Positions 38,950 to 56,246 are shown, counted from the first letter of the stretch. The stretch: DNA of 64,000 bases from Clostridium sp. UBA701 (GCA_002298125.1 DBMJ01000016.1:1-64000); one strand, 5' to 3'. Numbers and translations are program-made. Notes: generated from the letters alone by a model not told the origin.

Positions 38950-38957
38950 CTTGCAAA

Positions 38958-38990
38958 AAGTCTGCAGAGAAATCTGCAGGCTTTTTTATT
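38958..38990 (+). terminator. intrinsic terminator (CTGCAGAgaaaTCTGCAGgcTTTTTTATTT)
   Basis: stem + T-run. Confidence 0.6.
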
Positions 38991-39101: not shown

Positions 39102-41219
39102 GTGATCACCATTTTAGATGAAAGAACTTTTAAAATCTTAAAAATGCTGCTAGATTCTAATGCACCTATTAAAATTTCAGAAATTTCAAAAACATTAGGG
39201 GTTAGCAACAGGACTTTAAGATATGATTTAGACCGCATAGATGACTTTCTAAATGATAAAAAATTGCCACAACTAAACAGAAAGCCCGGTCTTGGCATTG
39301 AGTACTCTCCTTCGCCCGAAAAAAGACAGTTGGTGAAGGATATATTGAGGGAGCTCAATGTAAACTCATACATCCTCTCCAAGCAAGAAAGGGTAAACAT
39401 AATATTAAGTGAGCTTCTGCAGCAGAAAAATTATATAACAATTGATTATATTGCAGATAAGCTTATGGTAAGCAGAAGTACTGTACTAAAGGATCTTGAG
39501 GAGATAAGGGAGTGGCTGAAAAAGTATAATTTAAATTTAAAATCTACTCCTAGGCATGGAATAATGGCAGAGGGTGAAGAAAAAAGATTAAGAAGGGCTG
39601 CCATGAGACTTTTGATAGAGGCTATGGACATAGACAGCGCTTTGGATTTTGTAAAATCTCCTGTATATATGAAAAACCATTCTAAAGTGGAAGGCACTAT
39701 AGCAAATCTTTTCAGTGATATGGATATACCCTTTATTGAAATTGCAGTACAGGAGTCAGAAAGGGAGCTTAATACAGTATTTTCCGATGAAGCCTATTCA
39801 AACTTAGTTTTGCATATAGCAATAGCTATAAAGAGGATACAACAGGGCAGAGACATAGCTATGCCCCGGGAGGAGCTTAATGCGCTAAAGAGTACTAGAG
39901 AATATAAGGTAGCCTGCAGTTTAGTAGATAAGCTATCAAAGGGTTTTAAAATAATCATTCCAGAAGAGGAGATTGGATACATTACTGTGCACTTTTTGGG
40001 CAGCAGTATAACAAAGATTAATCGAGCTGAGGCCGAGAATTGGCTGGAGCTGCACCTTATTACTAATGAAATACTAAAAAGAGCAGCAGAAGAATTAGGG
40101 CAGGAGATGGGGAAGGATGAGCAGCTATTTAGGGGGTTATTAGAGCACTTAAGGCCTGCAGTCTATAGATTAAAAAATGACCTCACACTTAAAAATCCTC
40201 TTCTTAAGGAAATAAAACGTGATTATAGTGAACTCTTTACACAGGTTAAAGGCTTTATGTTACCCTTTGAGCAATATGTTGGTAAGAGCTTAAACGAAGA
40301 AGAAATTGGATATCTAACTATGCACTTTGGAGCTGCACTAGAGAGGGTACTTAACAGAAACACCCATAGGATGAATATTCTATTGGTATGTGGTACAGGG
40401 CTTGGGACAGCTAAGCTGCTAGATACCAGGATAAGAGCTCACTTTAATGTGAATATTGTAGATACAGTATCCTATAGGCAGATTGATGAGGCAGCCATTA
40501 ACAAGGCCGTAGATTTGATTGTTACTACGGTTCCGCTTAACAAACAGGAGATTCCATGGGTTAAGGTGAATGCACTTTTACCGGAAGAGGATGTTAAAAT
40601 ACTGAGCACCTATATTAACACTCCTAAAAGCTTCAGTAAGGAGCTGGATGAGCTTATAAGCATAATTGAAAGCTACTGTGAGGTGAAGGATTACAACCAA
40701 CTAAACACAAGACTGTCAACTTTTTTAAATATCAGTAATAAGGAAGTGGAAAGGAGAACCATAACACCTATGCTAAAAGAGGTATTAAAAGCTGAATATA
40801 TAGAACTAAACGTTGTTGCAAATAACTGGGAAGAAGCAGTAAGAGCAGGAGGTGAGCTATTAAGAAAAAATGATTGCATAGAGAGCAGATATATCGATGA
40901 AACCGTAAAAGCTGTAAAGGAGATTGGCCCATATATTGTAATTGCCCCAGGCATTGCCATGCCTCATGCCAGGCCAGAATTGGGTGTGAAGAAAATTGGG
41001 ATGAGCCTTATTTCTTTAAAGGAGCCAGTATGCTTTGGTAATAAGGATAATGACCCAGTGAGAATAGTCATAACAGTATGTGCTGTAGACCATTCCTCTC
41101 ACCTTAAAGCGTTATCTGAGCTGGTAGAATTCCTGCGAGATGAGAAATTTATAGATACTGTACTGAATACTATGGACAAGGAACACATTGTAAGCTATAT
41201 AAACTCAAAAAGTAATTAA
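39102..41219 (+). CDS. PRD-domain transcriptional regulator (BglG/MtlR/LicR family: HTH, Mga-like, 2x PRD, EIIB-like, C-terminal EIIA-like domain)
   Basis: 705 aa; PRD His motifs (LHIAIAI, LTMHFGAA), EIIB(Gat)-like CGTGLGTAKLL, EIIA(Mtl/Fru)-like C-terminus; GTG start. Confidence 0.8.
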   Translation: MITILDERTFKILKMLLDSNAPIKISEISKTLGVSNRTLRYDLDRIDDFLNDKKLPQLNRKPGLGIEYSPSPEKRQLVKDILRELNVNSYILSKQERVNIILSELLQQKNYITIDYIADKLMVSRSTVLKDLEEIREWLKKYNLNLKSTPRHGIMAEGEEKRLRRAAMRLLIEAMDIDSALDFVKSPVYMKNHSKVEGTIANLFSDMDIPFIEIAVQESERELNTVFSDEAYSNLVLHIAIAIKRIQQGRDIAMPREELNALKSTREYKVACSLVDKLSKGFKIIIPEEEIGYITVHFLGSSITKINRAEAENWLELHLITNEILKRAAEELGQEMGKDEQLFRGLLEHLRPAVYRLKNDLTLKNPLLKEIKRDYSELFTQVKGFMLPFEQYVGKSLNEEEIGYLTMHFGAALERVLNRNTHRMNILLVCGTGLGTAKLLDTRIRAHFNVNIVDTVSYRQIDEAAINKAVDLIVTTVPLNKQEIPWVKVNALLPEEDVKILSTYINTPKSFSKELDELISIIESYCEVKDYNQLNTRLSTFLNISNKEVERRTITPMLKEVLKAEYIELNVVANNWEEAVRAGGELLRKNDCIESRYIDETVKAVKEIGPYIVIAPGIAMPHARPELGVKKIGMSLISLKEPVCFGNKDNDPVRIVITVCAVDHSSHLKALSELVEFLRDEKFIDTVLNTMDKEHIVSYINSKSN

Positions 41220-41238
41220 TGGATAAGGGGGAAAAAGA

Positions 41239-41526
41239 ATGAAGGTTTTGACTGTATGCGGCATGGGAATGGGAACAAGCTTAATGCTCCTCATGGAAAT
41301 ACAATCTGTGGCCAAGAAGCATGGCATTGCAATTGAAGGAGAGGCGATAGACTTGGGTTCTGCCAAAGGAAGGACCTGTGATTTAATCGTAGCCTCTGCT
41401 GAAATAGCTAACGAGTTAAGCGATGTAAATGCAGAAATAGTTGGAATCAAAAATATCATTGACAGAGTGGAGATTGAACAAAAGGTAATGCCGGTTATCC
41501 AAAATATAATAAATAGGGGGAAATAA
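41239..41526 (+). CDS. PTS EIIB component, L-ascorbate (UlaB/SgaB) family
   Basis: 95 aa; MKVLTVCGMGMGTS active-site Cys motif. Confidence 0.85.
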   Translation: MKVLTVCGMGMGTSLMLLMEIQSVAKKHGIAIEGEAIDLGSAKGRTCDLIVASAEIANELSDVNAEIVGIKNIIDRVEIEQKVMPVIQNIINRGK

Positions 41527-41529
41527 AAT

Positions 41530-42792
41530 ATGTTAAATATCATTGTTGCGATTTTGAGTAATCCTGCTATAATAATTGCTTTAATTGCACTGATTGGACT
41601 TATTGCTCTTAGAAAAAATACATCTGACATTATAAAGGGTACTCTTAAGACATTACTGGGATTTTTAATTCTACAAGCTGGAGCAGGCATAATAGTTAAT
41701 GCACTGATACCCTTTAGTACAATGTTTACCAGTGCTTTTGGACTTACAGGCATAGTTGCAGAGGACAATTCCCTTGTGGCAGCTGTACAGACCATCTTAG
41801 GCACAGAAACTGCTCTTATCATGGTTTTTTCGTTCTTAATTAATTTAGTACTAGCTAGAGTTACAAAGTTCAAATATATATTCCTAACAGGACACATGAT
41901 GTTTTCCTTTGCAGGAACCATGGCCATAGTACTAGATCAGATGGGTATGCGCGGATGGAAGGCAATTCTAATAGGAAGTATCGTTCAAGGTATTTCTATG
42001 GTGTTGTTCCCAGCTATATCTCAATCCTCTGTACGTAAGGTAACTGGAAATGACAATGTAGCCTTTGGCTTCTGGGGAAGCTCCTGGATATCTCTTTCAG
42101 GCTGGCTTGGAGGGAAACTTGGGGACAAGTCCAAGAGCACTGAGGACATAAAGGTTCCAAAGTCAATAGACTTCTTAAAGGATATGTCTATATTAATGTC
42201 CATAGTAATGATAGTAGTTTATGTTGTTACTGCTATATTCGTTAATCCTGAGGAAGCAGCAAAGATTAGCAATGGTCAGAACATATACCTATTCTCTGTA
42301 ATGCAAGCCTTCACCTTTGTAGCAGGTATTTTAGTGCTGCTGCAGGGCGTTAGAATGTTCCTAGGTGAAATAGTTCCTGCCTTTAAGGGTATAGGAGAAA
42401 AGCTTGTTCCAGGTGCAAAGCCTGCACTGGATGTTCCAATATTCTATTCCTTCGCTCCAGTAGCTGTAACCTTTGGTTTCTTGTCTGCTGTTGTAGGAGG
42501 ACTTATAGTGACCTTTATTTCCAGCTGGCTGCCTGTTGTAGTACTACCATCAGTAATAGGCTTGTTCTTTATGGGAGGAGCAGCAGGAGTATTTGGCAAT
42601 GCTAGAGGAGGAAGAAGAGGCGCAATAATATCAGGCTTTATCCTTGGCTTTTCCTGGTCACTGCTTATTGCTCTTGCCTATCCACTGGTTGACATGGCAA
42701 AATATGGAGTACAGGGATTGTGGTTTGCTTCCCCTGATGCCATAATTGTTGTGATAATTATGAAGCTGGCAGGTATGATCTTTGGTGTATAA
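41530..42792 (+). CDS. PTS EIIC component, L-ascorbate (UlaA/SgaT) family
   Basis: 420 aa polytopic; UlaA-like pattern. Confidence 0.85.
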   Translation: MLNIIVAILSNPAIIIALIALIGLIALRKNTSDIIKGTLKTLLGFLILQAGAGIIVNALIPFSTMFTSAFGLTGIVAEDNSLVAAVQTILGTETALIMVFSFLINLVLARVTKFKYIFLTGHMMFSFAGTMAIVLDQMGMRGWKAILIGSIVQGISMVLFPAISQSSVRKVTGNDNVAFGFWGSSWISLSGWLGGKLGDKSKSTEDIKVPKSIDFLKDMSILMSIVMIVVYVVTAIFVNPEEAAKISNGQNIYLFSVMQAFTFVAGILVLLQGVRMFLGEIVPAFKGIGEKLVPGAKPALDVPIFYSFAPVAVTFGFLSAVVGGLIVTFISSWLPVVVLPSVIGLFFMGGAAGVFGNARGGRRGAIISGFILGFSWSLLIALAYPLVDMAKYGVQGLWFASPDAIIVVIIMKLAGMIFGV

Positions 42793-42811
42793 AATTCTAT
42801 AGCCATAAAAT

Positions 42812-42838
42812 AGCAAGCCCTCATTGTACATGAGGGCT
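42812..42838 (+). promoter_or_regulatory. intercistronic hairpin (AGCCCTCATgtacATGAGGGCT) between IIC and hydrolase genes
   Basis: 10-bp perfect palindrome without a clear T-run; possible processing/partial-termination element. Confidence 0.4.
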
Positions 42839-42857
42839 GCGCTATATCTTAAGGAGA

Positions 42858-43781
42858 GTGATAAATATGAAAAAAGTAAGGACAGTATTAGGGGATATCC
42901 CAATGGAGAACTTAGGTTTTACCTATTCCCATGAACATCTATGGTGTTATCCTCCAGAACATCAAAAGGACAGAGATTTGGAAATTTCAGATTATAATAA
43001 ATCCATTGGAGAATTAAATAATTTCAAGGCTGTTGGGGGAAAAACCCTGGTAGAGGCTTCTACCCTAGACTATGGCCGCAATGGAGCAAAGCTAAAGGCC
43101 ATGTCTCAAGAGACAGGAGTAAATGTAGTAGCCACCACAGGCTTTAACAAACATATTTACTTTCCAAAGTGGGTGGAGGAGGAATCCATTGAGCAGATAA
43201 AAGAAAGGCTTGTAAGAGATATTACCGTGGGTATGGATGGAAGCGATGCTAAGGCAGGGTTTTTTAAATCTGGTGCCTGGTATAACATGGTTCATCCCCT
43301 TGAAGATAAGGTTACAAGAGCCATAGCAAAAGCACACCTTGAAACTGGTGCTCCCATATGGCTGCATACAGAGGCTGGTACCATGGGCATGGAAATGCTA
43401 GACATACTTCAAGAGGAGGGAGTAGATCTAACCAAGGTAGCAGTAGGACATAGTGACAGAAATGCGGATCCTTATTATCACTTGAAGCTAGCGGAAAGAG
43501 GAGCCTATGTACAATTTGATGGGCCAGGAAAGGTGAAATATTATCCAGACAGCACCAGAGTAATGCTAATAAAGAATCTAATAGAGCATGGGTATTTAGA
43601 CAAGCTTCTTATCTCAGGAGATATGGGGCGTAAATCCTATTTAGAGGCCTATGGCGGAGGGCCAGGCTTTAGATTTATAGCTACTAAGTTTATAGCTAGA
43701 TTGCTGGATGAAGGTATAACACAGAAGGAGATTGATACAATCTTTGTGCACAATCCTGCACAATGGTTAGCTCAGTTCTAA
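42858..43781 (+). CDS. phosphotriesterase-family (PTE/Php, amidohydrolase) protein, probable lactonase
   Basis: 307 aa; GFTYSHEHL N-terminal His-His motif and conserved metal ligands of the PTE family. Confidence 0.85.
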   Translation: MINMKKVRTVLGDIPMENLGFTYSHEHLWCYPPEHQKDRDLEISDYNKSIGELNNFKAVGGKTLVEASTLDYGRNGAKLKAMSQETGVNVVATTGFNKHIYFPKWVEEESIEQIKERLVRDITVGMDGSDAKAGFFKSGAWYNMVHPLEDKVTRAIAKAHLETGAPIWLHTEAGTMGMEMLDILQEEGVDLTKVAVGHSDRNADPYYHLKLAERGAYVQFDGPGKVKYYPDSTRVMLIKNLIEHGYLDKLLISGDMGRKSYLEAYGGGPGFRFIATKFIARLLDEGITQKEIDTIFVHNPAQWLAQF

Positions 43782-43795
43782 GAGGAGGAATATGC

Positions 43796-44404
43796 ATGGG
43801 AAAGGGTAAGATAGTTGCCATAATGAGAGGTGTAGAGCCTGAGAATGCTGTGATGGTTGCAGGGGTTCTTTTGGAGGAGGGTATAAACTCCATGGAGGTC
43901 TCCTTAAGTGATGAGGAAAAGGGACTTCAATGCATAAGGGCAATAGCTGAGGCTTTTAAGGATAGGATTGATATTGGAGCAGGCACAGTAATTAATGAAG
44001 CTCAGGTTGACAAGGTAATAGCAGCAGGAGCAAGGTTTGTTATTACTCCTGGATGGGACAAAGAGCTGGTAAGATATATTATGCAGAAGGGTCTAAGGGT
44101 GTTTCCGGGAGTTTTTTCACCGGGGGAGATAATGGCAGCCATAAATGAAAAAGTAGAGATAATGAAGCTTTTTCCAGCTGGTACCCTTGGTACAGATTAT
44201 ATAAAAAATCTATTTGGACCATTTCCTAAGCTTAAACTAATGGCTGTTGGAGGAGTAAATAAGTCAAATATAAAAGCCTTCTATGCTGCAGGCTGTAGCT
44301 TTTTTGGAATTGGCAGTGACCTCATACCAAGAGGAGCAGGAGAAAGGGATCTAGAGTACATCAGAAAATCAGCTCAAGAGTACATGAGTATACTAAAGGA
44401 GTAG
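43796..44404 (+). CDS. KDPG/KHG aldolase (Eda) family protein
   Basis: ~203 aa from ATG 43796 (GAGGAGG RBS 8 nt upstream); IVAIMRGV..E.TL motifs. Confidence 0.75.
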   Translation: MGKGKIVAIMRGVEPENAVMVAGVLLEEGINSMEVSLSDEEKGLQCIRAIAEAFKDRIDIGAGTVINEAQVDKVIAAGARFVITPGWDKELVRYIMQKGLRVFPGVFSPGEIMAAINEKVEIMKLFPAGTLGTDYIKNLFGPFPKLKLMAVGGVNKSNIKAFYAAGCSFFGIGSDLIPRGAGERDLEYIRKSAQEYMSILKE

Positions 44405-44411
44405 AGGTTAA

Positions 44412-45158
44412 ATGTGTATTGTAAAAGAATTGATATTGATGAACCGAGATGAAGCAGCAGAGGCAGTAAGTGAATTTCCTGTGGCAGTGCTGCCCTTAGG
44501 TGCTACGGAGCAGCATGGCCATCATCTTCCTCTTGGAACAGATGTGTTTCTTGCAGAGGGTATTGCACGTAGGCTTTGTGCAAACACGGGAGCACTTTTG
44601 CTTCCCTCAATACCCTTTGGATATTCATGGGTGTGGAGAGATATTCCAGGCACAGTAACCATCGAAGAGGATATGGAGGAGGAGCTCATAAAGCAGGTAG
44701 CTCACAGCGTATCAAGATACGGAATAAAGCTTCTTATATTGGTAAACGGCCATGATGCAAATAATGCTGCTATGAAGTATGCCACCAGAGAGCTAATGGA
44801 TGAGCTTCAAATGCCAGTGGTATATCTATTCTATCCAAACCTGCAAAAGATAATTGATCAGTATTGTGAATCACCTACCTGGCATGGAATGATTCACGCT
44901 TGTGAATTTGAGACTTCACTTATGTTAGCTATAAAGCCTGAGCTTGTGAAAATGCATAGAGCAGTAAGGGAGTATCCTGAAAAGCCAATGCTCTATGGAA
45001 AGTCCACCATATCACTAGGAAACTTAAGTGCAAGCGGGGTATATGGAGATCCAACCTTAGCTACAAGGGAAAAAGGAGAATTAATGCTAGATAGCTTTGT
45101 AAACTCTATGACAAGCTTGGTAATGGAGGCAATAAAGACTCTTAAGTGTCCAAAATAG
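44412..45158 (+). CDS. creatininase-family (creatinine amidohydrolase-like) metal-dependent hydrolase
   Basis: 248 aa; LPLGATEQHGHHLPLGTD signature. Confidence 0.8.
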   Translation: MCIVKELILMNRDEAAEAVSEFPVAVLPLGATEQHGHHLPLGTDVFLAEGIARRLCANTGALLLPSIPFGYSWVWRDIPGTVTIEEDMEEELIKQVAHSVSRYGIKLLILVNGHDANNAAMKYATRELMDELQMPVVYLFYPNLQKIIDQYCESPTWHGMIHACEFETSLMLAIKPELVKMHRAVREYPEKPMLYGKSTISLGNLSASGVYGDPTLATREKGELMLDSFVNSMTSLVMEAIKTLKCPK

Positions 45159-45191
45159 AGTGACAGAGATAGGATTTTAGGAGGATGCAAC

Positions 45192-45455
45192 ATGGTTTCA
45201 AAAGACATTTTAGTTCGTAACAGTACAGGTATTCATACTAGACCGGCCTCCTTATTTGTCAAGGCTGCATCTCAATTCCAATCCGATATATATGTGGAAA
45301 AGGAAGATAAAAGTGCAAACGGCAAATCTATGCTAGGAGTGCTTTCACTGTGTATAAATTGTGGTTCGATAATAAAGATAAGAGCAGAGGGACCCGATGA
45401 GAAAGCAGCAGTTTATAAGCTAGTGGAGCTTGTAGAGACCGGTTTAGAGGAGTAA
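45192..45455 (+). CDS. ptsH: phosphocarrier protein HPr
   Basis: 87 aa; active-site GIHTRPA (His15) and regulatory Ser (KSxxGVL) present. Confidence 0.85.
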   Translation: MVSKDILVRNSTGIHTRPASLFVKAASQFQSDIYVEKEDKSANGKSMLGVLSLCINCGSIIKIRAEGPDEKAAVYKLVELVETGLEE

Positions 45456-45551
45456 GGTTTTTCATTTGAGCAGTAAAAAAATGTAGACCGTTATAGTTAA
45501 AACAATATTGAAATGGGTAAGAGGGTGATGGTATAATATAAATACAAATAA

Positions 45552-45626
45552 GGCTCCTTGGTCAAGCGGTTAAGACACCACCCTCTCACGGTGGTATCAG
45601 GGGTTCGAGTCCCCTAGGAGTCACCA
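45552..45626 (+). tRNA. tRNA-Glu with anticodon CUC (includes encoded CCA)
   Basis: Cloverleaf by eye: acceptor GGCTCCT/AGGAGTC, anticodon stem CCACC/GGTGG with loop CTCTCAC, T-arm AGGGG-TTCGAGT-CCCCT; aligns to bacterial tRNA-Glu except position 34 is C rather than U. Confidence 0.8.
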
Positions 45627-45659
45627 TAAAAAACCTGCAGTATTTCTGCAGGTTTTTTG
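45627..45659 (+). terminator. intrinsic terminator after tRNA (AAAAAACCTGCAGtatttCTGCAGGTTTTTTG)
   Basis: perfect stem + T6. Confidence 0.7.
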
Positions 45660-45733
45660 TTGCTTACATATTGTTTATATTTTACATATATAGATATATA
45701 ATAGTATATATCTATATATTGGGGGATGCGAGA

Positions 45734-45937
45734 ATGAAAAGAAGAATATTAATGTCTTTAGCTGTTATAGCACTTCTATTATCTGTCTATATAGTTTACG
45801 TTAATTCTAAGTCAGTATTATATGTGGGGAAAGTGAATACAGCCCTGGTAAACCACAGGGGGATTCAAACAGGAGACAAAACCTTTTATTTAAGGCTATT
45901 ATTATTGGAAGTGAAAAGCTGGTGCTTAAATATATAA
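45734..45937 (+). CDS. small hypothetical protein with N-terminal signal/TM segment (67 aa)
   Basis: ATG with GGGGG RBS; MKRRILMSLAVIALLLSVYIV..; no family recognised. Confidence 0.3.
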   Translation: MKRRILMSLAVIALLLSVYIVYVNSKSVLYVGKVNTALVNHRGIQTGDKTFYLRLLLLEVKSWCLNI

Positions 45938-46127: not shown

Positions 46128-49067
46128 ATGGATAAGATAATATATTTTTTGCCACTGTATTCAGATAATAGGGAGCAGCTTATAGATAAGTGCTGCAAGC
46201 TTCAGAATAAAGGACAGAATTTTTTATACATACTGCCCTCAAGAGGGGCTTTGTCCTCAGTAAGACAGAGCTTTTTAGATAAAAGAGGGGGACTTATTAA
46301 CAGCTCCATTATAATGTTTGATGAGCTAGAGAGACTTTTATGCAGGGAAGTCCTAGCTGAGAGCAGGATAATAAATTCCAGGGTGAAGGAGGAGCTTCTT
46401 CAAGAGAGTGTTGAAAGAAATAGAGACAAGCTCTTATATTTTAAAAAACTAAGCAGCAGTATGGGCTTTATAAGAGAGCTGTCCTCTCTTATCTCTCGCA
46501 TGAAAAGGGAGTGCAAAACTTGGGAGGAGCTTATTATTCTCTCAAGCAGCTATGCCAATTCTCCTCTTAGTAAAAAGCTTCAGGACATAGCAATGCTTTA
46601 TAGGGCTTATGAGGATATAAAAAAAGCTAAGAGACTTTACGATAGCGAAGATATTTCTAAGTTTGCAATAGAGGAGGCAGCCGCAAATCCTATATGGCAA
46701 AGCATAGATACTATAGTTATAGATGGCTTTATAAACATAGACAGGGTAAATAAAGAGCTTATAAAAACCATAGCTAAGCAGGATAGGGTTAGTATATACA
46801 TAAACCTTCCTTATAGAAATGAGCTTCTAGAGCCTTTTTTAAATAGTGAAATTAATGAGGAGCTATTATCTTTAGGCTTTCAGCTTGTAACTAATGAAAC
46901 ATCTCAGCATAAGGCAGCAGCCGCCTTAAAGGAGCTTTCTCTGGGGCTCTATAGTGGAGAAAAATGCAACTCCTCCTGTGATGGTATAGTGCTTAGAAGC
47001 TTTCCCTGTGTGGAAGCTGAGGTGAGAGAGGCTGCGCGCTGCATAAAGAAGAGTCTTATGGAGGGTATGGAACCATCTCATATAGCTCTATATGTAAATA
47101 ATCTAGACCTATATGAAAAATCCATAACCTCAATATTTAGTGAATATAATATACCTCATAATTTAGGTCAGCGGGAAAAGCTTATAAATGTGCGTTTCGT
47201 AAGAGAGCTTATAACTGACTGCACCTGGCTCCAAGAGGAGGACACTATAGAAAAGCATCTCTTAAAGCTTGAGGATAGGCTTAGGGAGGAAAGAGAAAAA
47301 TTAAATAATGCTGCAGAAGCAATGCTTTTGGGAAATTTGACTAACACTGAAGCCATTTACCTAAGAGGGTATAAGGGGCTGCAAGGCATAATTGCTCTTT
47401 GGAGGAGTCAAAATTACCTACTGCAGCAAGGAAATAAAATTATTTCCCGGGAAAAGTTTGTAGAACAGATGAGGCAGTGGGTGGAGGAGGCTACAGTTAC
47501 CCTTAAAAAAGGCTTTAATACTGGAGTAAATATTTTAAATACAGATCTTGCTAAGGGAATATATTTTAAGGAAGTGTATATTCTTGGCCTAAATGAGGGA
47601 GAGGTGCCTAAGGCTGCTGAAAAGTCTGTGATATTTAATGGTGAAGAGAAGAGAAGACTTATGGAGGAGGGCTTTACGCTAAGAAGCGGAAGCTATGAAC
47701 AGTATAGAGAAAAGATAAGATTCAATCTAGCATTAGCTTCAGCTGAAGAAAGGCTCTACCTAAGCTGTAGAAATGCAGGAGAAAAGGGAGAGTTTGCAAT
47801 ACCCTCCTCTTTTATGGAGGAGGTATGCTATCTAACCTCAAGGTCAATTGTAAAATATTCTATGAAGGACAGGTTTTATAAGAATTTTTCAGAGCTAATG
47901 AGCAGGAGAGAGCTTGAAGAAAGCAGTCTAGTAAGCTACTGTGAAGCTCTTTATGAGGGCAGTATTACTGTAGAGGATCTAAGCTGTGGACTTTCAAGCC
48001 TATGCTCAAAGGGAGACATCTCCTCCACTCTTGTGGAATATCACAGGGAGTATGAGGAGGACTTTGACAGCTATGAGGGAATGGTGGGAGGAGCTTTTCT
48101 ACCTCAGGTGAGCAGCTTTTTCACCTATAGCGGCAGCAGCTTCAACGGCTATTTTCAATGTCCCTTTAGATATATGCTGGACAATATTTTTAAGCTACAG
48201 GAGTTTGAAGAAGAGGAGGAGGAGTTCTCCGCCATAGAGCTTGGACAACTATACCATAGGGTACTTGCAGCCTATTACAAAGAGGCAGACTATTGGCATA
48301 GTGTAAATGAGAAGCTCCTAAGTGAAAAATATGATGAGGAATACAGCAAGCTAAGACCCTTAGAGCTGCCAAAGCTTGTACTTGATACCTTAAGGGAAAA
48401 ATATTATAAAATCCTTAAGGACTTTATAGCTGCAGACCTAACTAGGCTTTCGGGCTATGAAAAGCTTACAGGAAGGGTACTAAGACCCTATAGGCTTGAG
48501 TGGTCTCTTCAAAATTATGACTTTTTAGGCATTCCCTTAAAAGGTATAGTGGATAGAGTGGATTTAGAATATGAGAAGGTAGAGGGAGGTTTAAAGCCTA
48601 CAGGAGCTTATGTCATCTATGATTATAAGAGGAAGTCGAGCTCCTCCTCCCCTAAAAATCTCAAGGATATAGTGTCAGGCAGGGATTGTCAGCTTCCCAT
48701 TTACTACTACCTGGCAGAAGAGCAGCTTAAAAACATTCTTAAGCTAGAGAATATAAGGTGCATGGGGCTTTTATATATGTATGTGGAAAATTTGAATAAG
48801 ACTGCCCCCAAGGCTTCAGGGATACTTTTAAATGAAGATAAAAAGGCCTTAGGCTATTCAAGAAGTGAAGGGATAAGTACACCAGCCTTTAAGGTAGTAG
48901 TGCAGCAGGTTCAGGATTTGGTTAAAGAGGCTCTTACCAAAATTAAAAGCGGAAGCTTTAACTATAAGCCATACTGTTATCACAAAGAGAGCAGCTTTGC
49001 CTATCCATGCAGATATGGAAATCTATGCCGCTATAGCAAAAATAAAATACGAAGGGGAGGGATTTAA
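46128..49067 (+). CDS. rexB: helicase-nuclease subunit B, RexB/AddB type (inactive helicase-like N-terminus, C-terminal RecB-type nuclease with Fe-S Cys staple)
   Basis: 979 aa; N-terminus LYILPSRGALSS resembles RexB (no Walker A); nuclease motif GIVDRVD..YVIYDYK; Cys pattern C(FQCPF)...YCYHKESSFAYPCRYGNLC. Confidence 0.8.
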   Translation: MDKIIYFLPLYSDNREQLIDKCCKLQNKGQNFLYILPSRGALSSVRQSFLDKRGGLINSSIIMFDELERLLCREVLAESRIINSRVKEELLQESVERNRDKLLYFKKLSSSMGFIRELSSLISRMKRECKTWEELIILSSSYANSPLSKKLQDIAMLYRAYEDIKKAKRLYDSEDISKFAIEEAAANPIWQSIDTIVIDGFINIDRVNKELIKTIAKQDRVSIYINLPYRNELLEPFLNSEINEELLSLGFQLVTNETSQHKAAAALKELSLGLYSGEKCNSSCDGIVLRSFPCVEAEVREAARCIKKSLMEGMEPSHIALYVNNLDLYEKSITSIFSEYNIPHNLGQREKLINVRFVRELITDCTWLQEEDTIEKHLLKLEDRLREEREKLNNAAEAMLLGNLTNTEAIYLRGYKGLQGIIALWRSQNYLLQQGNKIISREKFVEQMRQWVEEATVTLKKGFNTGVNILNTDLAKGIYFKEVYILGLNEGEVPKAAEKSVIFNGEEKRRLMEEGFTLRSGSYEQYREKIRFNLALASAEERLYLSCRNAGEKGEFAIPSSFMEEVCYLTSRSIVKYSMKDRFYKNFSELMSRRELEESSLVSYCEALYEGSITVEDLSCGLSSLCSKGDISSTLVEYHREYEEDFDSYEGMVGGAFLPQVSSFFTYSGSSFNGYFQCPFRYMLDNIFKLQEFEEEEEEFSAIELGQLYHRVLAAYYKEADYWHSVNEKLLSEKYDEEYSKLRPLELPKLVLDTLREKYYKILKDFIAADLTRLSGYEKLTGRVLRPYRLEWSLQNYDFLGIPLKGIVDRVDLEYEKVEGGLKPTGAYVIYDYKRKSSSSSPKNLKDIVSGRDCQLPIYYYLAEEQLKNILKLENIRCMGLLYMYVENLNKTAPKASGILLNEDKKALGYSRSEGISTPAFKVVVQQVQDLVKEALTKIKSGSFNYKPYCYHKESSFAYPCRYGNLCRYSKNKIRRGGI

Positions 49068-49068
49068 T

Positions 49069-52000
49069 ATGGCCTTTCCATTAAATGATGAACAGCTTCA
49101 GGCACTAAATATAGAAGAAAACATTTCACTATCAGCAGGAGCAGGTTCAGGGAAAACCAGGGTGCTTACAGAGAGATATATAAAGCTTCTAGAGGAGGAC
49201 AGTGAGGCTGATATTCTAAACATAGTGGCCATAACCTTCACCAATAAGGCTGCCCTAGAGATGAAGGACAGGGTGAGAAAGGCTATCCTCGTAAAGCTTG
49301 AGGAGTCTAAGAGTGAGGAGAGAAAGCTTTGGCAGCAAAGACTAGATGCGCTTAGTGAAGCACATATTAATACCATCCACGGGTTCTGTGGAGAAATAAT
49401 AAGAGAGCAGGCAGAAGAGCTAAACATAAGCCCAAGCTACTCTATTATAGATGCTGTAGAAAAGGAGCTGCTGCTTAGAGAAATCTTCACTAAGGTGGTA
49501 GCGGAAAGTCTTATTAAGGAGGACTTTAAAGAGGCTGTGGCAGAAATGGTGGAGCTCTATGGAGGAGAGTACCTTCAAAGGAAGGGCAGCTGTAATATTT
49601 ATAAAGATCTTCATAGGCTTCGGGAAAAGCTTTTAGAGAGAGGTCAGCTTAACAAAGAGCTTTTAAAAGCAGTTCAGCCTGAAAGCATGGAGCATTTTGT
49701 AATTTATATTCTGCTTAAGGTAGAGGAGCGCTATACAAAGAGCAAGAGAGAAAAAGACCTAATGGACTTTAATGATATGGAGCTTTTGTGTTATTCTGCT
49801 ATGCAGATAAAGGACATTAAAGAATACTATAAAAATAGATATAAAAGATTTCTAGTAGATGAATTTCAGGATACCAATGAACTTCAAAAGAAGATATTAT
49901 TTTCCTTTATTGAGGATGAGGATGGAATGCCTATGGATAAACGCCTCTTTGTAGTAGGAGATGTAAAGCAGTCCATATACCGCTTCCGTGGAGCAGATAT
50001 GCAGGTGTTTAATAGGGTAAGGGCAGAGCTTCCTGAAAACAGCAGAAAAAGTCTTCATATCTGCTACAGATGCCACCCCTCTATTGTAAAGGGAGTAAAC
50101 CAAATATTTAAAAAGCTTATGGCAGGCTATGAAGAACTTCAATCTGAAAGCGTGGAAGAGGATAAAAGAATTACCCTGCTCACCTATGAGGAGGAAGCAG
50201 AGGAAAAAGCAGATATCTACAGTGGCATAAAGGAGCTATATAAAACAGAGGATGAAGAGCATATGGAGGAGCTTAAGCTCAAGCTTAAGACCTTTTTAGA
50301 GGATATTAAAAATACAAAGCCCACAGAAGCTAAGGAAGGAGAGGCAGTGTTAAAGGCTGTCTATCATCTTAGAAATTGCGGCTTAGCCTATAGAGATATG
50401 GCGGTGCTTGTACGAAGCCGCTCCTCCCTGGCTGTACTGGAGGAGACTTTTATCAAGTATAAAATACCTTACTGTATCATAGGAGGAAAGGGCTTTTACA
50501 ATAAACAGGAGGTAATAGATATATTAAATCTATATAAGCTATCCATAGGGGATACTATTTCTAACGCAGAGCTTATTAGTGTGCTTAGAAGCCCCTTGTT
50601 TTCCATATCTGATGCAGCCCTTCTAAGAGGCAGGGTAGAGGCCATAGAACAGAAGGATATGGAGTTTTTAGAGGCTTTGGATTTAGCCTCGGAAACCCTT
50701 GAAGAAGAGAAGGAAAAGATTAATGCTGCCATAGGGGTCATTAGAGATTTACGCAGGGAGAGTGCAAATTGCAGTACTGTGCAGCTTCTAAAGTATATCT
50801 ATGATAAGACAGGAGTATGGAATAGATATATCTCACTAGAGCAGGGACTTCAGAAATACAGAAATCTAGAACAGCTATTACAGTGTGCAGAGGAATTTGA
50901 TAATAGGAAGCTGTTTTCACCTCAGGAGTTTATGGAATATATGACTCTTATGGCGGAGTACAGCAAGGAAGATGGAGAAGCTGCCCTAGACACAGAGGAT
51001 TCAGAGGCAATTAAGGTAATGACCATTCATGCCTCAAAGGGGTTGGAGTTTAAGGGAGTTATAATGCCCTCTCTAAACAAGAATTTACTGTATAATATAA
51101 ACAATGGGAAAAACAATTTTCTATACCAGGAGGATAATATAATAGCCTTTGACCGTTCAGCTAAGCAGGATGAAGCTTCTGACTTTCAGACTGGCAAGGC
51201 TCAAGAGGTTGAAAAGGAACTGCAGGAAGCAGTAAGAGTTTTTTATGTGGCTGTAACTCGTGCCATAGAACAGGTGGTGCTCATAGCACAGAGAGATGAA
51301 AAGTTGGAGGAGAAGCTTCAAAATGAAGCCTCCCTTAAGCCTGAGGACATCTATGGAAGCTACTATGCACAGCTTCTTTATGCCATTAATAGTGCTGGGG
51401 ATATTCCTGGTTTTCAAAGCCTAAGCATAGATGAGGTAGAGCTTAGGGAAGAAGCAGCTAAGGAGTACTATTTGCCTCAGGAGGATATTATAGTGCCAGA
51501 AGGAGTTGATTATAACTGTGAGGTGGTGCCACGTATTTTTTCCTCTGCCAGCAGCTATATGAGCTATAAACGCTGCCCTCTGGAGTATTATCTTAGTCGT
51601 GAATTGGCCTTTGCCCTGGACTTTTTAGAGGACAACAATGGTGAAGAGGAAAAGGAAGCTATAGAGGAGAGAGAACAGTCTTATGAGGGACTTACGGCAA
51701 TTGAGAAGGGACACATTATCCACAGTGTGTTAGAGCAGCTTGCAGTTAAGCCTGAATTAAGGGAGGAGGAGCTTCAGGAGTTTATTATAAGAGCTTCAGA
51801 GGAGGAGCTTGGTTATGAAAGCTATAATGAAGATATAGCCTCTGAAATAAAGCCCTATATTGATAGCTTTGTGAAGCTTGAAAAAAGCAGCAGGTTTAGT
51901 GCATTTACTCCCCTTTCAATCTTGTGTGAGGCTCAGTATACCTTTGCTCCACTTGAGGATAGGAAGCTAATATTAACTGGTGCCATAGATCGCCTTAGGC

Positions 52001-52326
52001 TTTATGAAATGGATGGAAAACTTGTGGCGGTTATTACGGATTATAAGAGTAACAACCTAAGAGATAGAGAGGAAGCAGAAATCACTGCTAAAAAATATCT
52101 TCCACAGATGCTCTTATACGGCCTTGCAGTTAAGACACTGTTTTCACATAAGGGAAGAAGTGTGGATGAGATTATTCTGCAGCTTTATTTCTTGAAGCCT
52201 GGAGAGGAAATTAAATTGAATTTTGATGAAAAAGAAGCACTGGTGCTGGTTGATGAGATGGATAGGATATTTAAGTCCATGGCGTTAAATAAGATAGAGG
52301 ATTTACAAGTGACAAGTGACAAGTGA
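49069..52326 (+). CDS. rexA: helicase-nuclease subunit A, RexA/AddA type (UvrD-like SF1 helicase + C-terminal PD-(D/E)xK nuclease)
   Basis: Start at ATG 49069 with GGGGAGGG RBS (ORF track extends to 48997); Walker A AGAGSGKTRVL, UvrD motifs, C-terminal GAIDRL..ITDYK nuclease motif; the stop codon lies inside the heptamer repeat. Confidence 0.85.
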   Translation: MAFPLNDEQLQALNIEENISLSAGAGSGKTRVLTERYIKLLEEDSEADILNIVAITFTNKAALEMKDRVRKAILVKLEESKSEERKLWQQRLDALSEAHINTIHGFCGEIIREQAEELNISPSYSIIDAVEKELLLREIFTKVVAESLIKEDFKEAVAEMVELYGGEYLQRKGSCNIYKDLHRLREKLLERGQLNKELLKAVQPESMEHFVIYILLKVEERYTKSKREKDLMDFNDMELLCYSAMQIKDIKEYYKNRYKRFLVDEFQDTNELQKKILFSFIEDEDGMPMDKRLFVVGDVKQSIYRFRGADMQVFNRVRAELPENSRKSLHICYRCHPSIVKGVNQIFKKLMAGYEELQSESVEEDKRITLLTYEEEAEEKADIYSGIKELYKTEDEEHMEELKLKLKTFLEDIKNTKPTEAKEGEAVLKAVYHLRNCGLAYRDMAVLVRSRSSLAVLEETFIKYKIPYCIIGGKGFYNKQEVIDILNLYKLSIGDTISNAELISVLRSPLFSISDAALLRGRVEAIEQKDMEFLEALDLASETLEEEKEKINAAIGVIRDLRRESANCSTVQLLKYIYDKTGVWNRYISLEQGLQKYRNLEQLLQCAEEFDNRKLFSPQEFMEYMTLMAEYSKEDGEAALDTEDSEAIKVMTIHASKGLEFKGVIMPSLNKNLLYNINNGKNNFLYQEDNIIAFDRSAKQDEASDFQTGKAQEVEKELQEAVRVFYVAVTRAIEQVVLIAQRDEKLEEKLQNEASLKPEDIYGSYYAQLLYAINSAGDIPGFQSLSIDEVELREEAAKEYYLPQEDIIVPEGVDYNCEVVPRIFSSASSYMSYKRCPLEYYLSRELAFALDFLEDNNGEEEKEAIEEREQSYEGLTAIEKGHIIHSVLEQLAVKPELREEELQEFIIRASEEELGYESYNEDIASEIKPYIDSFVKLEKSSRFSAFTPLSILCEAQYTFAPLEDRKLILTGAIDRLRLYEMDGKLVAVITDYKSNNLRDREEAEITAKKYLPQMLLYGLAVKTLFSHKGRSVDEIILQLYFLKPGEEIKLNFDEKEALVLVDEMDRIFKSMALNKIEDLQVTSDK

Positions 52327-55523: not shown

Positions 55524-56246
55524 ATGATTGATAAATACAGTGCTATTCCCGTGTATTTTCAAATTAAAGAGGATATAAAAAATAAAATTCTTCAAGGTCA
55601 TTGGGGTCCTGGACAATGTATAGATAGTGAAAGAGAAATTTCAGAGCATTACGGTGTCAGCCGAATGACTGTAAGACAGGCTATAGGTGAGCTGGTGAAG
55701 GAAGGAATACTTCTTCGAGAAAAGGGAAGAGGAACCTTTGTATGTGAAACTAGGATAACTCAGCACAACATCATGAGCTTTACGGAAATGACTGAGAAAA
55801 GCGGGCTTACGGCAGAAACAGTACTGCTTGATGTGTGCGCCTTAGAAGGGGACGAGGAGCTAGCAGAGCTCTTTGGAACAAAAGAGCTTCTTAGGATTCA
55901 GAGACTAAGGAAGGCAGATGATACAGTCATAGGCTTTGAGCAGGTGTATATACCAGAAAAAACACTAGGAGATACTAAGAAAGAGGAACTACAAGGCTCA
56001 CTCTTTAAGCTTTTAGAGGAAAGAGGAAGATTAATTGCAACCTCCCATGCCTTTATTAAGGCTGTGGAAACTCCAGCCTCTCTTTTGGAGATTTTTAGTG
56101 CTGAGGAAGTAAGTGCACTGCTTATGACCAACAGCTCCTATTATGATGAGGGCGGAGAGCTTATTTTTGTAGAGGAATCCTACTATAATGGTGAAAAATT
56201 TACCTTGGAGGTTAATATAGCAAAAAAGCAGGGAATGATACTTTAA
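55524..56246 (+). CDS. GntR-family transcriptional regulator with UTRA effector domain (NagR/YvoA-like)
   Basis: HTH SEREISEHYGVSRMTVRQAIGELVKEG; ATG 55524 with GGGAGGG RBS (the ORF track starts at TTG 55506). Confidence 0.8.
   Translation: MIDKYSAIPVYFQIKEDIKNKILQGHWGPGQCIDSEREISEHYGVSRMTVRQAIGELVKEGILLREKGRGTFVCETRITQHNIMSFTEMTEKSGLTAETVLLDVCALEGDEELAELFGTKELLRIQRLRKADDTVIGFEQVYIPEKTLGDTKKEELQGSLFKLLEERGRLIATSHAFIKAVETPASLLEIFSAEEVSALLMTNSSYYDEGGELIFVEESYYNGEKFTLEVNIAKKQGMIL

Follow-up and report, generated by a model that had tools for sequence, protein, structure and literature searches.

An operon of Clostridium sp. UBA701 with an ascorbate/galactitol-family PTS, a phosphotriesterase-family and a creatininase-family enzyme, and a predicted route to pyruvate and triose phosphate

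Among the closest described systems to the operon discussed here are those of Escherichia coli and Listeria. In the Ula (SgaT) system of E. coli, a lactone is imported and phosphorylated by a phosphotransferase system (PTS) and is then opened by a metal-dependent lactonase. Xiang and co-workers reportedly found in 2012 that the Listeria protein Lmo2620 hydrolyses D-lyxono- and L-ribono-1,4-lactone-5-phosphate in vitro. The Listeria monocytogenes cluster lmo1968-lmo1974 is known from annotation in pan-genome papers alone, where it is listed (EGD-e numbering) as lineage II-specific accessory DNA (PMC2996996, PMC3692452). Here we describe a related seven-gene unit at 39102-45455 in a 64 kb stretch of Clostridium sp. 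UBA701 (GCA_002298125.1, DBMJ01000016.1:1-64000), which we call the window; all coordinates are counted within the whole window unless a locus is named. The unit encodes a PRD regulator, the PTS subunits EIIB and EIIC, a phosphotriesterase-family hydrolase (PTE), an aldolase, a creatininase-family protein (CRE) and HPr. We consider it likely that the three enzymes, PTE, CRE and aldolase, work in a single pathway on a phosphorylated carbohydrate.

Gene content and conservation of the cassette

The seven open reading frames (ORFs) are all on the + strand with intergenic gaps of 3-74 nt. Their order and families, including the HPr gene at the end, are as the initial annotation had them, and each has Pfam or NCBIfam matches. 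EIIB (41239-41526, 95 aa) matches PTS_IIB (PF02302, 5.9e-16) and NF007586, is of the lactose/cellobiose-ascorbate type, and carries the cysteine motif VCGMGMGTS at its N-terminus. EIIC (41530-42792, 420 aa) matches EIIC-GAT (PF03611, 9.9e-122), the ascorbate/galactitol family of SgaT/UlaA, and passed the cut-offs of both NF009553 ('PTS sugar transporter IIC', 513 bits vs 423) and NF006919 ('PTS ascorbate transporter subunit IIC', 459 bits vs 380). HPr (45192-45455, 87 aa) matches PTS-HPr (2.6e-30) and TIGR01003 (91.9 bits vs a cut-off of 47.9), and has both His15 and Ser46. We found no UlaG, UlaD, UlaE, UlaF or UlaR family member among the seven genes or their neighbours. The usual ula enzymes are indeed replaced, as first described, by a PTE, a KDPG/KHG-aldolase-family protein and a creatininase-family protein. 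A canonical ascorbate operon was rejected for lack of the UlaG/D/E/F genes.

To see how far this arrangement extends we took one genome per species and then ran tblastn with all cassette components. Co-occurrence of the families, for which genome context had been named as a check, turned out to be strict for one pair. Where CRE has 44% identity or more to that of the window (24 distinct loci, the window and an Alicyclobacillus plasmid among them), PTE adjoins it without exception; of about 60 loci whose CRE relative has 31-39% identity, and so lies below 40%, not one has this pairing. The full cassette was found in Bacillales, Clostridia, Vagococcus and Listeria monocytogenes (lmo1968-1974), with Brevibacillus, Virgibacillus, Paenibacillus, Listeria, Clostridium oceanicum, Faecalicatena and Thermoanaerobacterium among its hosts. 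In the first six of these the order is regulator-EIIA-EIIB-EIIC-PTE-aldolase-CRE, and the Paenibacillus cassette continues with HPr and then Enzyme I. The non-canonical enzyme set is therefore present as it was first described, but other genomes share it; the cassette is widespread and includes lmo1968-1974 of Listeria.

Because the genes that flank the cassette differ in every genome, and because it is lineage II-specific in Listeria, the cassette appears to travel as one unit, and we regard the operon as self-contained and in all probability horizontally mobile. One Listeria record, NZ_LR134401.1, is an 810 kb L. monocytogenes 'plasmid 4' in which dinB, the lmo1968-1974 genes and telA follow one another as they do on the chromosome; it is evidently a chromosome fragment.

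There are cassettes in which whole modules have been exchanged. In Thalassovita and Maritimibacter (Alphaproteobacteria) the order is PTE-CRE-RpiR-RbsB-like binding protein-ABC ATPase-two permeases-FGGY kinase-Eda-type aldolase. A Latescibacterota genome has CRE-PTE-FGGY kinase, and on a plasmid of Alicyclobacillus dauci a sugar ABC system lies opposite PTE-CRE-aldolase-GntR-FGGY kinase. The binding protein of the ABC versions is RbsB-like and the FGGY kinases are XylB/GntK-like. Exchange of a PTS for an ABC transporter plus a kinase is the classic sign of enzymes acting on a phosphorylated compound. Because the ABC transporter and FGGY kinase take the place of the PTS, we predict that the cassette enzymes act on a phosphorylated carbohydrate.

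The aldolase slot is also exchanged. In the Alicyclobacillus cassette and in the Listeria cassette of Lmo2620 (which we call type B) it is filled by PF07071 'KDGP aldolase', a DgaF-like protein that is unrelated in sequence to Eda/DgoA. Since two non-homologous aldolases of the 2-keto-3-deoxy-6-phosphogluconate (KDPG) type fill one slot, the final step would be cleavage of a 2-keto-3-deoxy-phospho-aldonate. Regulators are swapped between cassettes as well, with GntR/UTRA proteins, PRD activators and RpiR all represented. The alphaproteobacterial RpiR is closest to HexR, a KDPG sensor, with 167 bits, which is below the cut-off. NCBIfam typing of the cassette GntR/UTRA regulators placed them in the generic HutC subfamily and gave no effector clue.

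Some loci carry further genes of the same kinds. In the Alphaproteobacteria (L021 6494-8889 and L022 6474-8975, minus strand) there is a second, divergently transcribed PTE paralogue with 52% identity to the Lmo2620 type, paired with a second FGGY kinase beside the PTE-CRE operon, and both lactonase types thus coexist with kinases. On the Alicyclobacillus dauci plasmid (NZ_CP104065, L097 13147-16519) the cassette is adjoined by a DeoR regulator, a four-carbon acid-sugar kinase and a PdxA-like dehydrogenase. In an Enterococcus avium-type contig (L093 3866-8993) a type B PTE follows PRD regulator-EIIA-EIIB-EIIC with no adjoining creatininase-family gene or aldolase, and a second operon of EIIC-GAT and transketolase lies just upstream. 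From this unaccompanied copy, the type B lactonase is not invariably paired with CRE.

The three enzymes, the proposed pathway and its alternatives

PTE (42867-43781, 304 aa; mechanical ORF start 42858) matches Pfam PTE with 7.9e-70 and is a binuclear-metal hydrolase of cog1735. Its best PDB match is 3PNZ, the structure of Lmo2620 (1.8e-81), followed by E. coli Php (4e-58) and true phosphotriesterases (1e-35). In a HMMER alignment to 3PNZ the metal ligands (HxH, Lys, His, His, Asp) align. In the same alignment K242, K244, R275 and Y278 of Lmo2620, which Xiang et al. reportedly showed in 2012 to hold the distal phosphate of the substrate, are all identical in the window PTE; E. coli Php deviates at two of these four positions. 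The protein scored under the equivalog cut-offs of NF045706 (phospho-furanose lactonase, 186.6 vs 630) and NF007373 (Php, 228.4 vs 486). It has approximately 44% identity to Lmo2620, is missing a 22-residue insertion of that protein, and falls in a separate orthogroup. Its identity is 80% to the Clostridium oceanicum protein, 74% to that of Listeria monocytogenes and 70% to that of Faecalicatena. We identify it as the orthologue of Listeria lmo1970 and predict that it is a phospho-sugar lactonase.

CRE (44412-45158, 248 aa) matches Pfam Creatininase (PF02633) with 3.3e-66. We aligned it against the Pseudomonas creatininase and judged invariance in an alignment of the orthogroup (19 sequences, mean column identity 73%). 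The creatininase metal ligands E34, H36, D45, H120 and E183 and the catalytic H178 correspond to E33, H35, D44, H114, E167 and H162 in the window, and the metal ligands and the H178 equivalent are invariant throughout the orthogroup. The residues that bind creatinine are not kept: E122 is replaced by Ala, W174 by His, and the S78 loop is deleted, with an invariant orthogroup-specific motif, FGYSWVWR, in its place. Against TIGR04448, the creatininase equivalog, CRE scored 128 where the cut-off is 235. Because the metal ligands are invariant and the creatinine residues are replaced, CRE appears to be an active binuclear-metal enzyme of the creatininase fold and not a creatininase. On both counts, substrate residues and equivalog score, we rejected it as a genuine creatininase. 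A phosphosugar acid might be accommodated by the loop rich in Trp and Arg that stands in for the S78 loop, together with a number of invariant Lys/Arg residues. There are hundreds of close relatives with 64-75% identity, in Brevibacillus, Heyndrickxia, Mesobacillus, Oceanobacillus, Virgibacillus, Paenibacillus and Desulfitobacteriaceae.

These results bear on the reading in which the genes are neighbours without a common pathway, with CRE a creatinine or small-lactam amidohydrolase and PTE a detoxifying or quorum-quenching lactonase or a phosphotriesterase. The family names and the JGI label 'creatinine amidohydrolase' are all that point to it. The loss of the creatinine-contacting residues and the failed TIGR04448 score speak against such a CRE, and the retained phosphate ligands of a phospho-sugar lactonase against such a PTE. 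PTE and CRE also stay strictly linked across phyla while the uptake and aldolase modules around them change, and we give this explanation almost no credence.

The aldolase (43796-44404, 202 aa; mechanical ORF start 43763) matches Pfam Aldolase with 1.4e-37 (129.5 vs a cut-off of 27.8). It has the Arg in AIMRG of strand 1, the Glu in EVSLS, the Schiff-base Lys in KLFPA, and the GG and GSDL phosphate motifs. In the alignment these match R14, E37, K126, G155-G156 and GSDL of DgoA. With 158 it did not reach the cut-off of the DgoA subfamily model NF006600 (207). From these residues we assign it to the class I aldolases for KDPG or the corresponding 2-keto-3-deoxy-6-phosphogalactonate (KDPGal), where it would belong to a DgoA/Thermotoga-like subgroup. 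The catalytic Lys, Glu and Arg and the GG and GSDL motifs are common to the cassette aldolases, and all 18 that we examined have Val at the position of DgoA V154 and Eda T161. Walters et al. are said to have shown in 2008 that Thr161 (Eda, KDPG) versus Val154 (DgoA, KDPGal) separates the two specificities. The Val may thus be a lead toward KDPGal stereochemistry, and it is a lead rather than a test.

The pathway that we propose has four steps. To judge from its family membership, the ascorbate/galactitol-family PTS (HPr, EIIB, EIIC) would import a lactone-like sugar acid and phosphorylate its terminal hydroxyl, with the EIIA activity coming from the C-terminal EIIA domain of the regulator or from a protein encoded elsewhere. 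The substrate would be an uncharged, cyclic derivative of a sugar acid; a 1,4-lactone is similar both to the furanoses that RbsB/YtfQ-like proteins bind and to ascorbate, the type substrate of this PTS family. PTE would then open the phosphorylated lactone ring by hydrolysis, as its homology to Lmo2620 and its phosphate ligands suggest. In the third step CRE would either hydrolyse an amide or ester or remove water from the lactone or aldonate, which are the candidate chemistries, to give a 2-keto-3-deoxy-6-phospho-aldonate that is KDPG-like and possibly has KDPGal stereochemistry. Finally the DgoA/Eda-type aldolase would cleave this product to pyruvate and glyceraldehyde-3-phosphate, in keeping with its intact residues and with the DgaF-type replacement in sister cassettes. 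The PRD regulator is expected to activate the operon in step with PTS phosphorylation. Our data establish which genes are present, that their catalytic residues are conserved and that they are very strongly linked across phyla; which compound is used, whether PTE or CRE acts first and what CRE catalyses are inferred.

The initial annotation had suggested, with some hedging, the uptake and phosphorylation of a sugar-acid lactone or related compound, ring opening and aldol cleavage by an uncharacterised route. The Lmo2620-like ligands, the exchange of the PTS for ABC transporter plus FGGY kinase, and the two aldolase families all support that suggestion. The amide or cyclic-amide hydrolysis that it put forward for CRE is a candidate reaction at most, as CRE retains the metal site but has lost the residues for creatinine. 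The route also had no description under other names in the searchable full-text literature, where no paper describes the pathway and none mentions creatininase and phosphotriesterase together. A search there for 'creatinine amidohydrolase' with 'phosphotriesterase' returned one match only, a Listeria gene list. We lean toward the outline that leads from a lactone through a KDPG-like compound to pyruvate and glyceraldehyde-3-phosphate. Any one specific substrate that we might name is unlikely to be the right one.

An aldonolactone and the matching 2-keto-3-deoxy acid are isomers, so 'one water out, one water in' formally suffices to convert one into the other. Given this relation and the precedent of galactarolactone cycloisomerase, CRE might catalyse an elimination or dehydration, which would be a novelty for its fold. 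The most far-reaching reading is that CRE is no amidase here but a new kind of phospho-aldonolactone or phospho-aldonate dehydratase (beta-eliminase); that with PTE and a KDPGal-type aldolase it makes up a previously unrecognised Entner-Doudoroff-like 'lactone shunt', which would occur widely, in Firmicutes (Listeria lineage II among them), in marine Alphaproteobacteria and elsewhere; and that the EIIA domain of the regulator is the sole EIIA of the transporter in this genome and in Thermoanaerobacterium, both driving and reporting uptake. We regard this reading as doubtful and offer it as a tentative proposal.

Several points weigh against the four-step pathway. Two hydrolase-fold enzymes cannot by plain hydrolysis alone turn an ordinary aldonolactone-6-phosphate into a 2-keto-3-deoxy acid, so either the reaction of CRE is new to its family or the substrate is already keto-deoxy patterned or N-acylated. 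The aldolase is below every equivalog cut-off, by a small amount for TIGR01182 (155.7 vs 156.05), and there is no adjacent aldolase in Brevinema (L023), Cryobacterium (L025) or the loci L020, L027 and L028. An extra SIS_2 (PRK02947/UPF0309) protein follows CRE in Listeria type B (L092 10435-11178) and in Brevinema (L023 10925-11581), and none of the schemes proposed here explains it. The substrates of Lmo2620 in vitro are reportedly five-carbon lactone phosphates that Xiang and co-workers took in 2012 from a limited synthetic library, so the physiological ligand is not fixed even for the closest homologue.

An N-acylated substrate would fit an oxidised amino-sugar route. The substrate would then be a 2-acylamino-2-deoxy-aldonolactone or acid, for example the aldonic acid of GlcNAc or GalNAc that arises when lytic polysaccharide monooxygenases (LPMOs) act on chitin. 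PTE would open the lactone, CRE would N-deacylate the amide or the enamide left after beta-elimination, acetate and ammonia would leave, and KDPG or KDPGal would pass to the aldolase. This accounts for the two hydrolases without a new reaction class for the amidase, as amide hydrolysis is established creatininase-family chemistry (creatinine, the formamide of ArfB, the peptide of MftE), and the DgaF-like aldolase of the sister cassette belongs to a family tied to the catabolism of D-glucosaminate-6-phosphate. Chitinolytic bacteria that produce LPMOs are found among the hosts (Listeria, Bacillus, Paenibacillus and Enterococcus, for example), and Jiang et al. reportedly described in 2022 a chitin-oxidation pathway of Pseudoalteromonas that ends in KDPG. 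However, no version of the cassette has a DgaE/OngC-type ammonia-lyase or a PLP enzyme, so the elimination would need to occur spontaneously or as a side activity. Nor do the kinases resemble NagK/ROK; they are FGGY proteins of XylB/GntK type, the transporter has an RbsB-like binding protein, and the GntR regulators have no specific affinity to NagR/DasR. The lactone products of LPMOs hydrolyse spontaneously, which would make a dedicated lactonase superfluous. On balance we think it rather unlikely that the substrate is an oxidised amino sugar and that the steps run in this way.

The transporter raises another possibility, an alternative operon for L-ascorbate (or erythorbate or dehydroascorbate) in which the PTS yields ascorbate-6-phosphate, PTE replaces UlaG to give 3-keto-L-gulonate-6-phosphate and CRE and the aldolase replace UlaD, UlaE and UlaF. 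The score of EIIC above the ascorbate IIC cut-off fits, as does an EIIA domain of the regulator that is closest to UlaC, and a PTE-family gene has been proposed as the UlaG substitute in Mycoplasma ula operons (PMC4866288). The four-carbon acid-sugar kinase and PdxA-like genes beside the Alicyclobacillus plasmid cassette form a module of the threonate/erythronate type, which is tied to ascorbate breakdown products; from a single genome this is a weak hint. But 3-keto-L-gulonate-6-phosphate is not a 2-keto-3-deoxy acid, and a KDPG-type Schiff-base aldolase would have no obvious substrate unless there was a deoxygenation. UlaD/E/F genes are in or near no version of the cassette, an RbsB-like ABC system with a XylB-like kinase is an unlikely choice for the uptake of an anionic reductone, and many hosts would be expected to have the cassette on top of canonical ula genes. 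We consider an ascorbate operon of this kind improbable.

The regulator, the EIIA question and the transcription unit

The regulator (39102-41219, 705 aa; its start codon is uncertain within 39102-39144) has Pfam matches to PRD (1.8e-43) and PTS_EIIA_2 (2.1e-33), and also to HTH_11/Mga and PTS_IIB. The domains run from HTH_Mga/HTH_11/Mga through two PRDs and an EIIB(Gat)-like domain (Cys430) to a C-terminal EIIA(Mtl/Asc)-like domain. It has the features by which MtlR, LicR and ManR are recognised, and we classify it as a PRD-containing transcriptional regulator of the MtlR/LicR type. The EIIA domain covers aa ~555-705 (window ~40765-41216) and has the full EIIA consensus (GPYIVIAPGIAMPHARPE, NDPV), with His622 in GPYIVIAPGIAMPHARPE. 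The phosphorylation sites H238, H297, H349, H408, C430 and H622 are all kept in the Thermoanaerobacterium orthologue (42% identity over 705 aa), and that locus is likewise without a free EIIA. Metagenome scans with the regulator, both as a single sequence and as an alignment, gave no orthologues and two unrelated PRD regulators, and the arrangement of a fused EIIA with no free EIIA is known from two lineages.

The absence of a free-standing EIIA, noted at the outset, was confirmed over the whole 64 kb. A tblastn search with eight free EIIAs matched only the C-terminus of the regulator (40770-41216), which is the sole EIIA-like domain. In an NCBIfam comparison this domain is closest to UlaC. 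It shares 36-42% identity with the free EIIAs that orthologous cassettes encode, vs 22-24% with the degenerate EIIA domains found in PRD regulators whose loci also have a free EIIA (Faecalicatena, Enterococcus). These values are compatible with the embedded domain serving as the EIIA of the transporter. They are suggestive only as to its origin, and we do not claim that it arose by simple fusion. Three points keep these values short of proof: the Listeria type B regulator has a good EIIA motif beside a free EIIA, the Brevinema locus has no EIIA whatsoever, and an EIIA could be encoded elsewhere in this genome.

As for transcription, the gaps between genes are short and there are no terminators between them, and for these reasons we favour one transcript that would begin 5' of the regulator gene and extend to the end of HPr. 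The public annotation of an identical contig, together with ribosome-binding sites, favours starts at 42867 for PTE and 43796 for the aldolase. The GTG/ATG starts of the mechanical ORF list, 42858 for PTE and 43763 for the aldolase, are probably wrong. With the favoured starts adopted, the apparent overlap of PTE and aldolase vanishes.

Between EIIC and PTE there is a stem-loop at 42810-42845 (core 42816-42838, + strand) of -23.8 kcal/mol and z -3.96, without a U-tract on the + strand. Hairpins of unrelated sequence stand at the same position in Virgibacillus, Heyndrickxia, Robertmurraya and a Bacillota metagenome-assembled genome (L002 8257-8406, L012 8365-8448, L014 8368-8450 and L024 8327-8417) and are missing from several others. 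By way of processing, stabilisation or partial termination, the hairpin may adjust how much transporter is made relative to enzyme. An Rfam scan of the window found the tRNA only, and neither the leader nor the EIIC-PTE gap holds a known riboswitch or RAT element. A search for cre (CcpA) sites gave a single off-consensus match inside the regulator gene, which is fewer than the chance expectation.

The operon lies between an M16 peptidase gene upstream and a tRNA-Glu and AddB/AddA downstream. At 38955-38986 (strand not assigned) there is an inverted repeat with 14 nt arms that are 93% complementary, which forms a palindromic G+C stem (CTGCAG...CTGCAG) with A/T-run flanks. This hairpin is the terminator of the M16 peptidase gene and the 5' boundary of the operon. 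A second CTGCAG-stem terminator at 45629-45660 (again without strand), 3' of the tRNA-Glu, is the earliest terminator-like structure 3' of HPr, as there is no terminator-like site between HPr and the tRNA; it is the probable 3' limit of read-through. These two similar, bidirectional hairpins bracket the unit from regulator to HPr plus the tRNA-Glu. A third CTGCAG hairpin motif is found at 2976-2990, which makes three in the window vs 0.05 expected by chance. The hairpins could be either the ordinary terminator style of the genome or the borders of an inserted island.

The tRNA-Glu (anticodon CTC, 45552-45626) begins 96 nt past HPr and has its own near-consensus extended -10 promoter at 45508-45537. 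It is possible that the operon transcript runs on into it. The other genes nearby are unrelated to the operon: a small ORF at 45671-45937 with a signal-peptide-like N-terminus, AddB/AddA-type helicase-nuclease genes at 46128-52326, and, about 10 kb downstream at 55527-56201, a GntR/UTRA regulator with 29% identity to the cassette GntR of other species.

Comparison with known systems

Thousands of genomes carry annotated PTE proteins of the Php/Lmo2620 type and members of a large creatininase-family branch, with no physiological role assigned to either. In the present unit an orphan PTE and an orphan CRE form an obligate pair in what would be a compact route of three enzymes, and its predictable products, pyruvate and triose phosphate, make it testable by reconstitution. 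Solving the operon would assign a function to two orphan enzyme groups, the Listeria genes included. If CRE is truly a dehydratase or eliminase, the fold would gain a new reaction type and Entner-Doudoroff-type carbon flow a further variant. With its built-in EIIA domain, the regulator is a test case for how transport and regulation are coupled in PRD activators.

Listeria is a tractable and ecologically relevant model, as the orthologous cluster is one of a small number of gene sets by which lineage II differs from lineage I and the paralogous cluster is core to the species. We regard lmo1968-lmo1974 as the orthologous cassette on the strength of its shared core content and order: EIIB, EIIC-GAT, PTE (74% identity), an Eda-type aldolase (51%) and CRE (66%). 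It differs in having a GntR/UTRA repressor, a free EIIA and no HPr gene; in the window these are replaced by a PRD activator to which an EIIA domain is fused, and an HPr gene is present. The Lmo2620/Bh0225 cassette (Listeria type B, L092) follows the same logic, with PRD regulator, EIIA/B/C-GAT, PTE, CRE and a KDPG-type aldolase, in the order PRD regulator-EIIA-EIIB-EIIC-PTE-CRE-aldolase-SIS protein. This cassette is a paralogue; its PTE differs as described above, its CRE is 33% identical, its aldolase is of the PF07071/DgaF-like kind, and it has the extra SIS_2 protein.

With the E. coli Ula system, the window unit shares the family of EIIC and EIIB and the overall plan of uptake with phosphorylation followed by a metal-dependent lactonase. 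It is without UlaG (of the metallo-beta-lactamase fold), UlaD, UlaE, UlaF and UlaR (of the DeoR type). The Ula pathway ends in xylulose-5-phosphate, whereas the window pathway is predicted to end in pyruvate and triose phosphate.

The Entner-Doudoroff (Pgl-Edd-Eda) and De Ley-Doudoroff (DgoD-DgoK-DgoA) pathways likewise finish with a class I KDPG/KDPGal aldolase, and lactonase, dehydration and aldolase is the same formal sequence as the one that we propose. The unit would thus operate as a PTS-fed version of the lower part of either pathway. The dga operon for D-glucosaminate in Salmonella is a precedent for a PTS that feeds directly into KDPG, although its PTS is of the mannose family and that of the window is of the GAT family. 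In contrast to all of these, the window unit has CRE in the slot of IlvD/Edd, of DgoD (enolase superfamily) or of the PLP enzyme DgaE, and neither an Edd (IlvD family) nor a DgoD dehydratase is present in the window cassette or in any related cassette that we examined.

A chemical parallel is provided by the galactarolactone isomerase and cycloisomerase (Gli/Gci) of Agrobacterium, which turn a lactone into the isomeric keto-deoxy acid by beta-elimination at the level of the lactone, and in which an amidohydrolase-superfamily enzyme handles the lactone. The likeness is one of chemistry only: Gli and Gci are of unrelated families (enolase superfamily, cog3618), act on unphosphorylated substrates and have no PTS. 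Set beside these systems, what is new here is therefore the uncharacterised pair of enzymes in a probable PTS operon for sugar-acid catabolism, an operon that is not unique to this genome.

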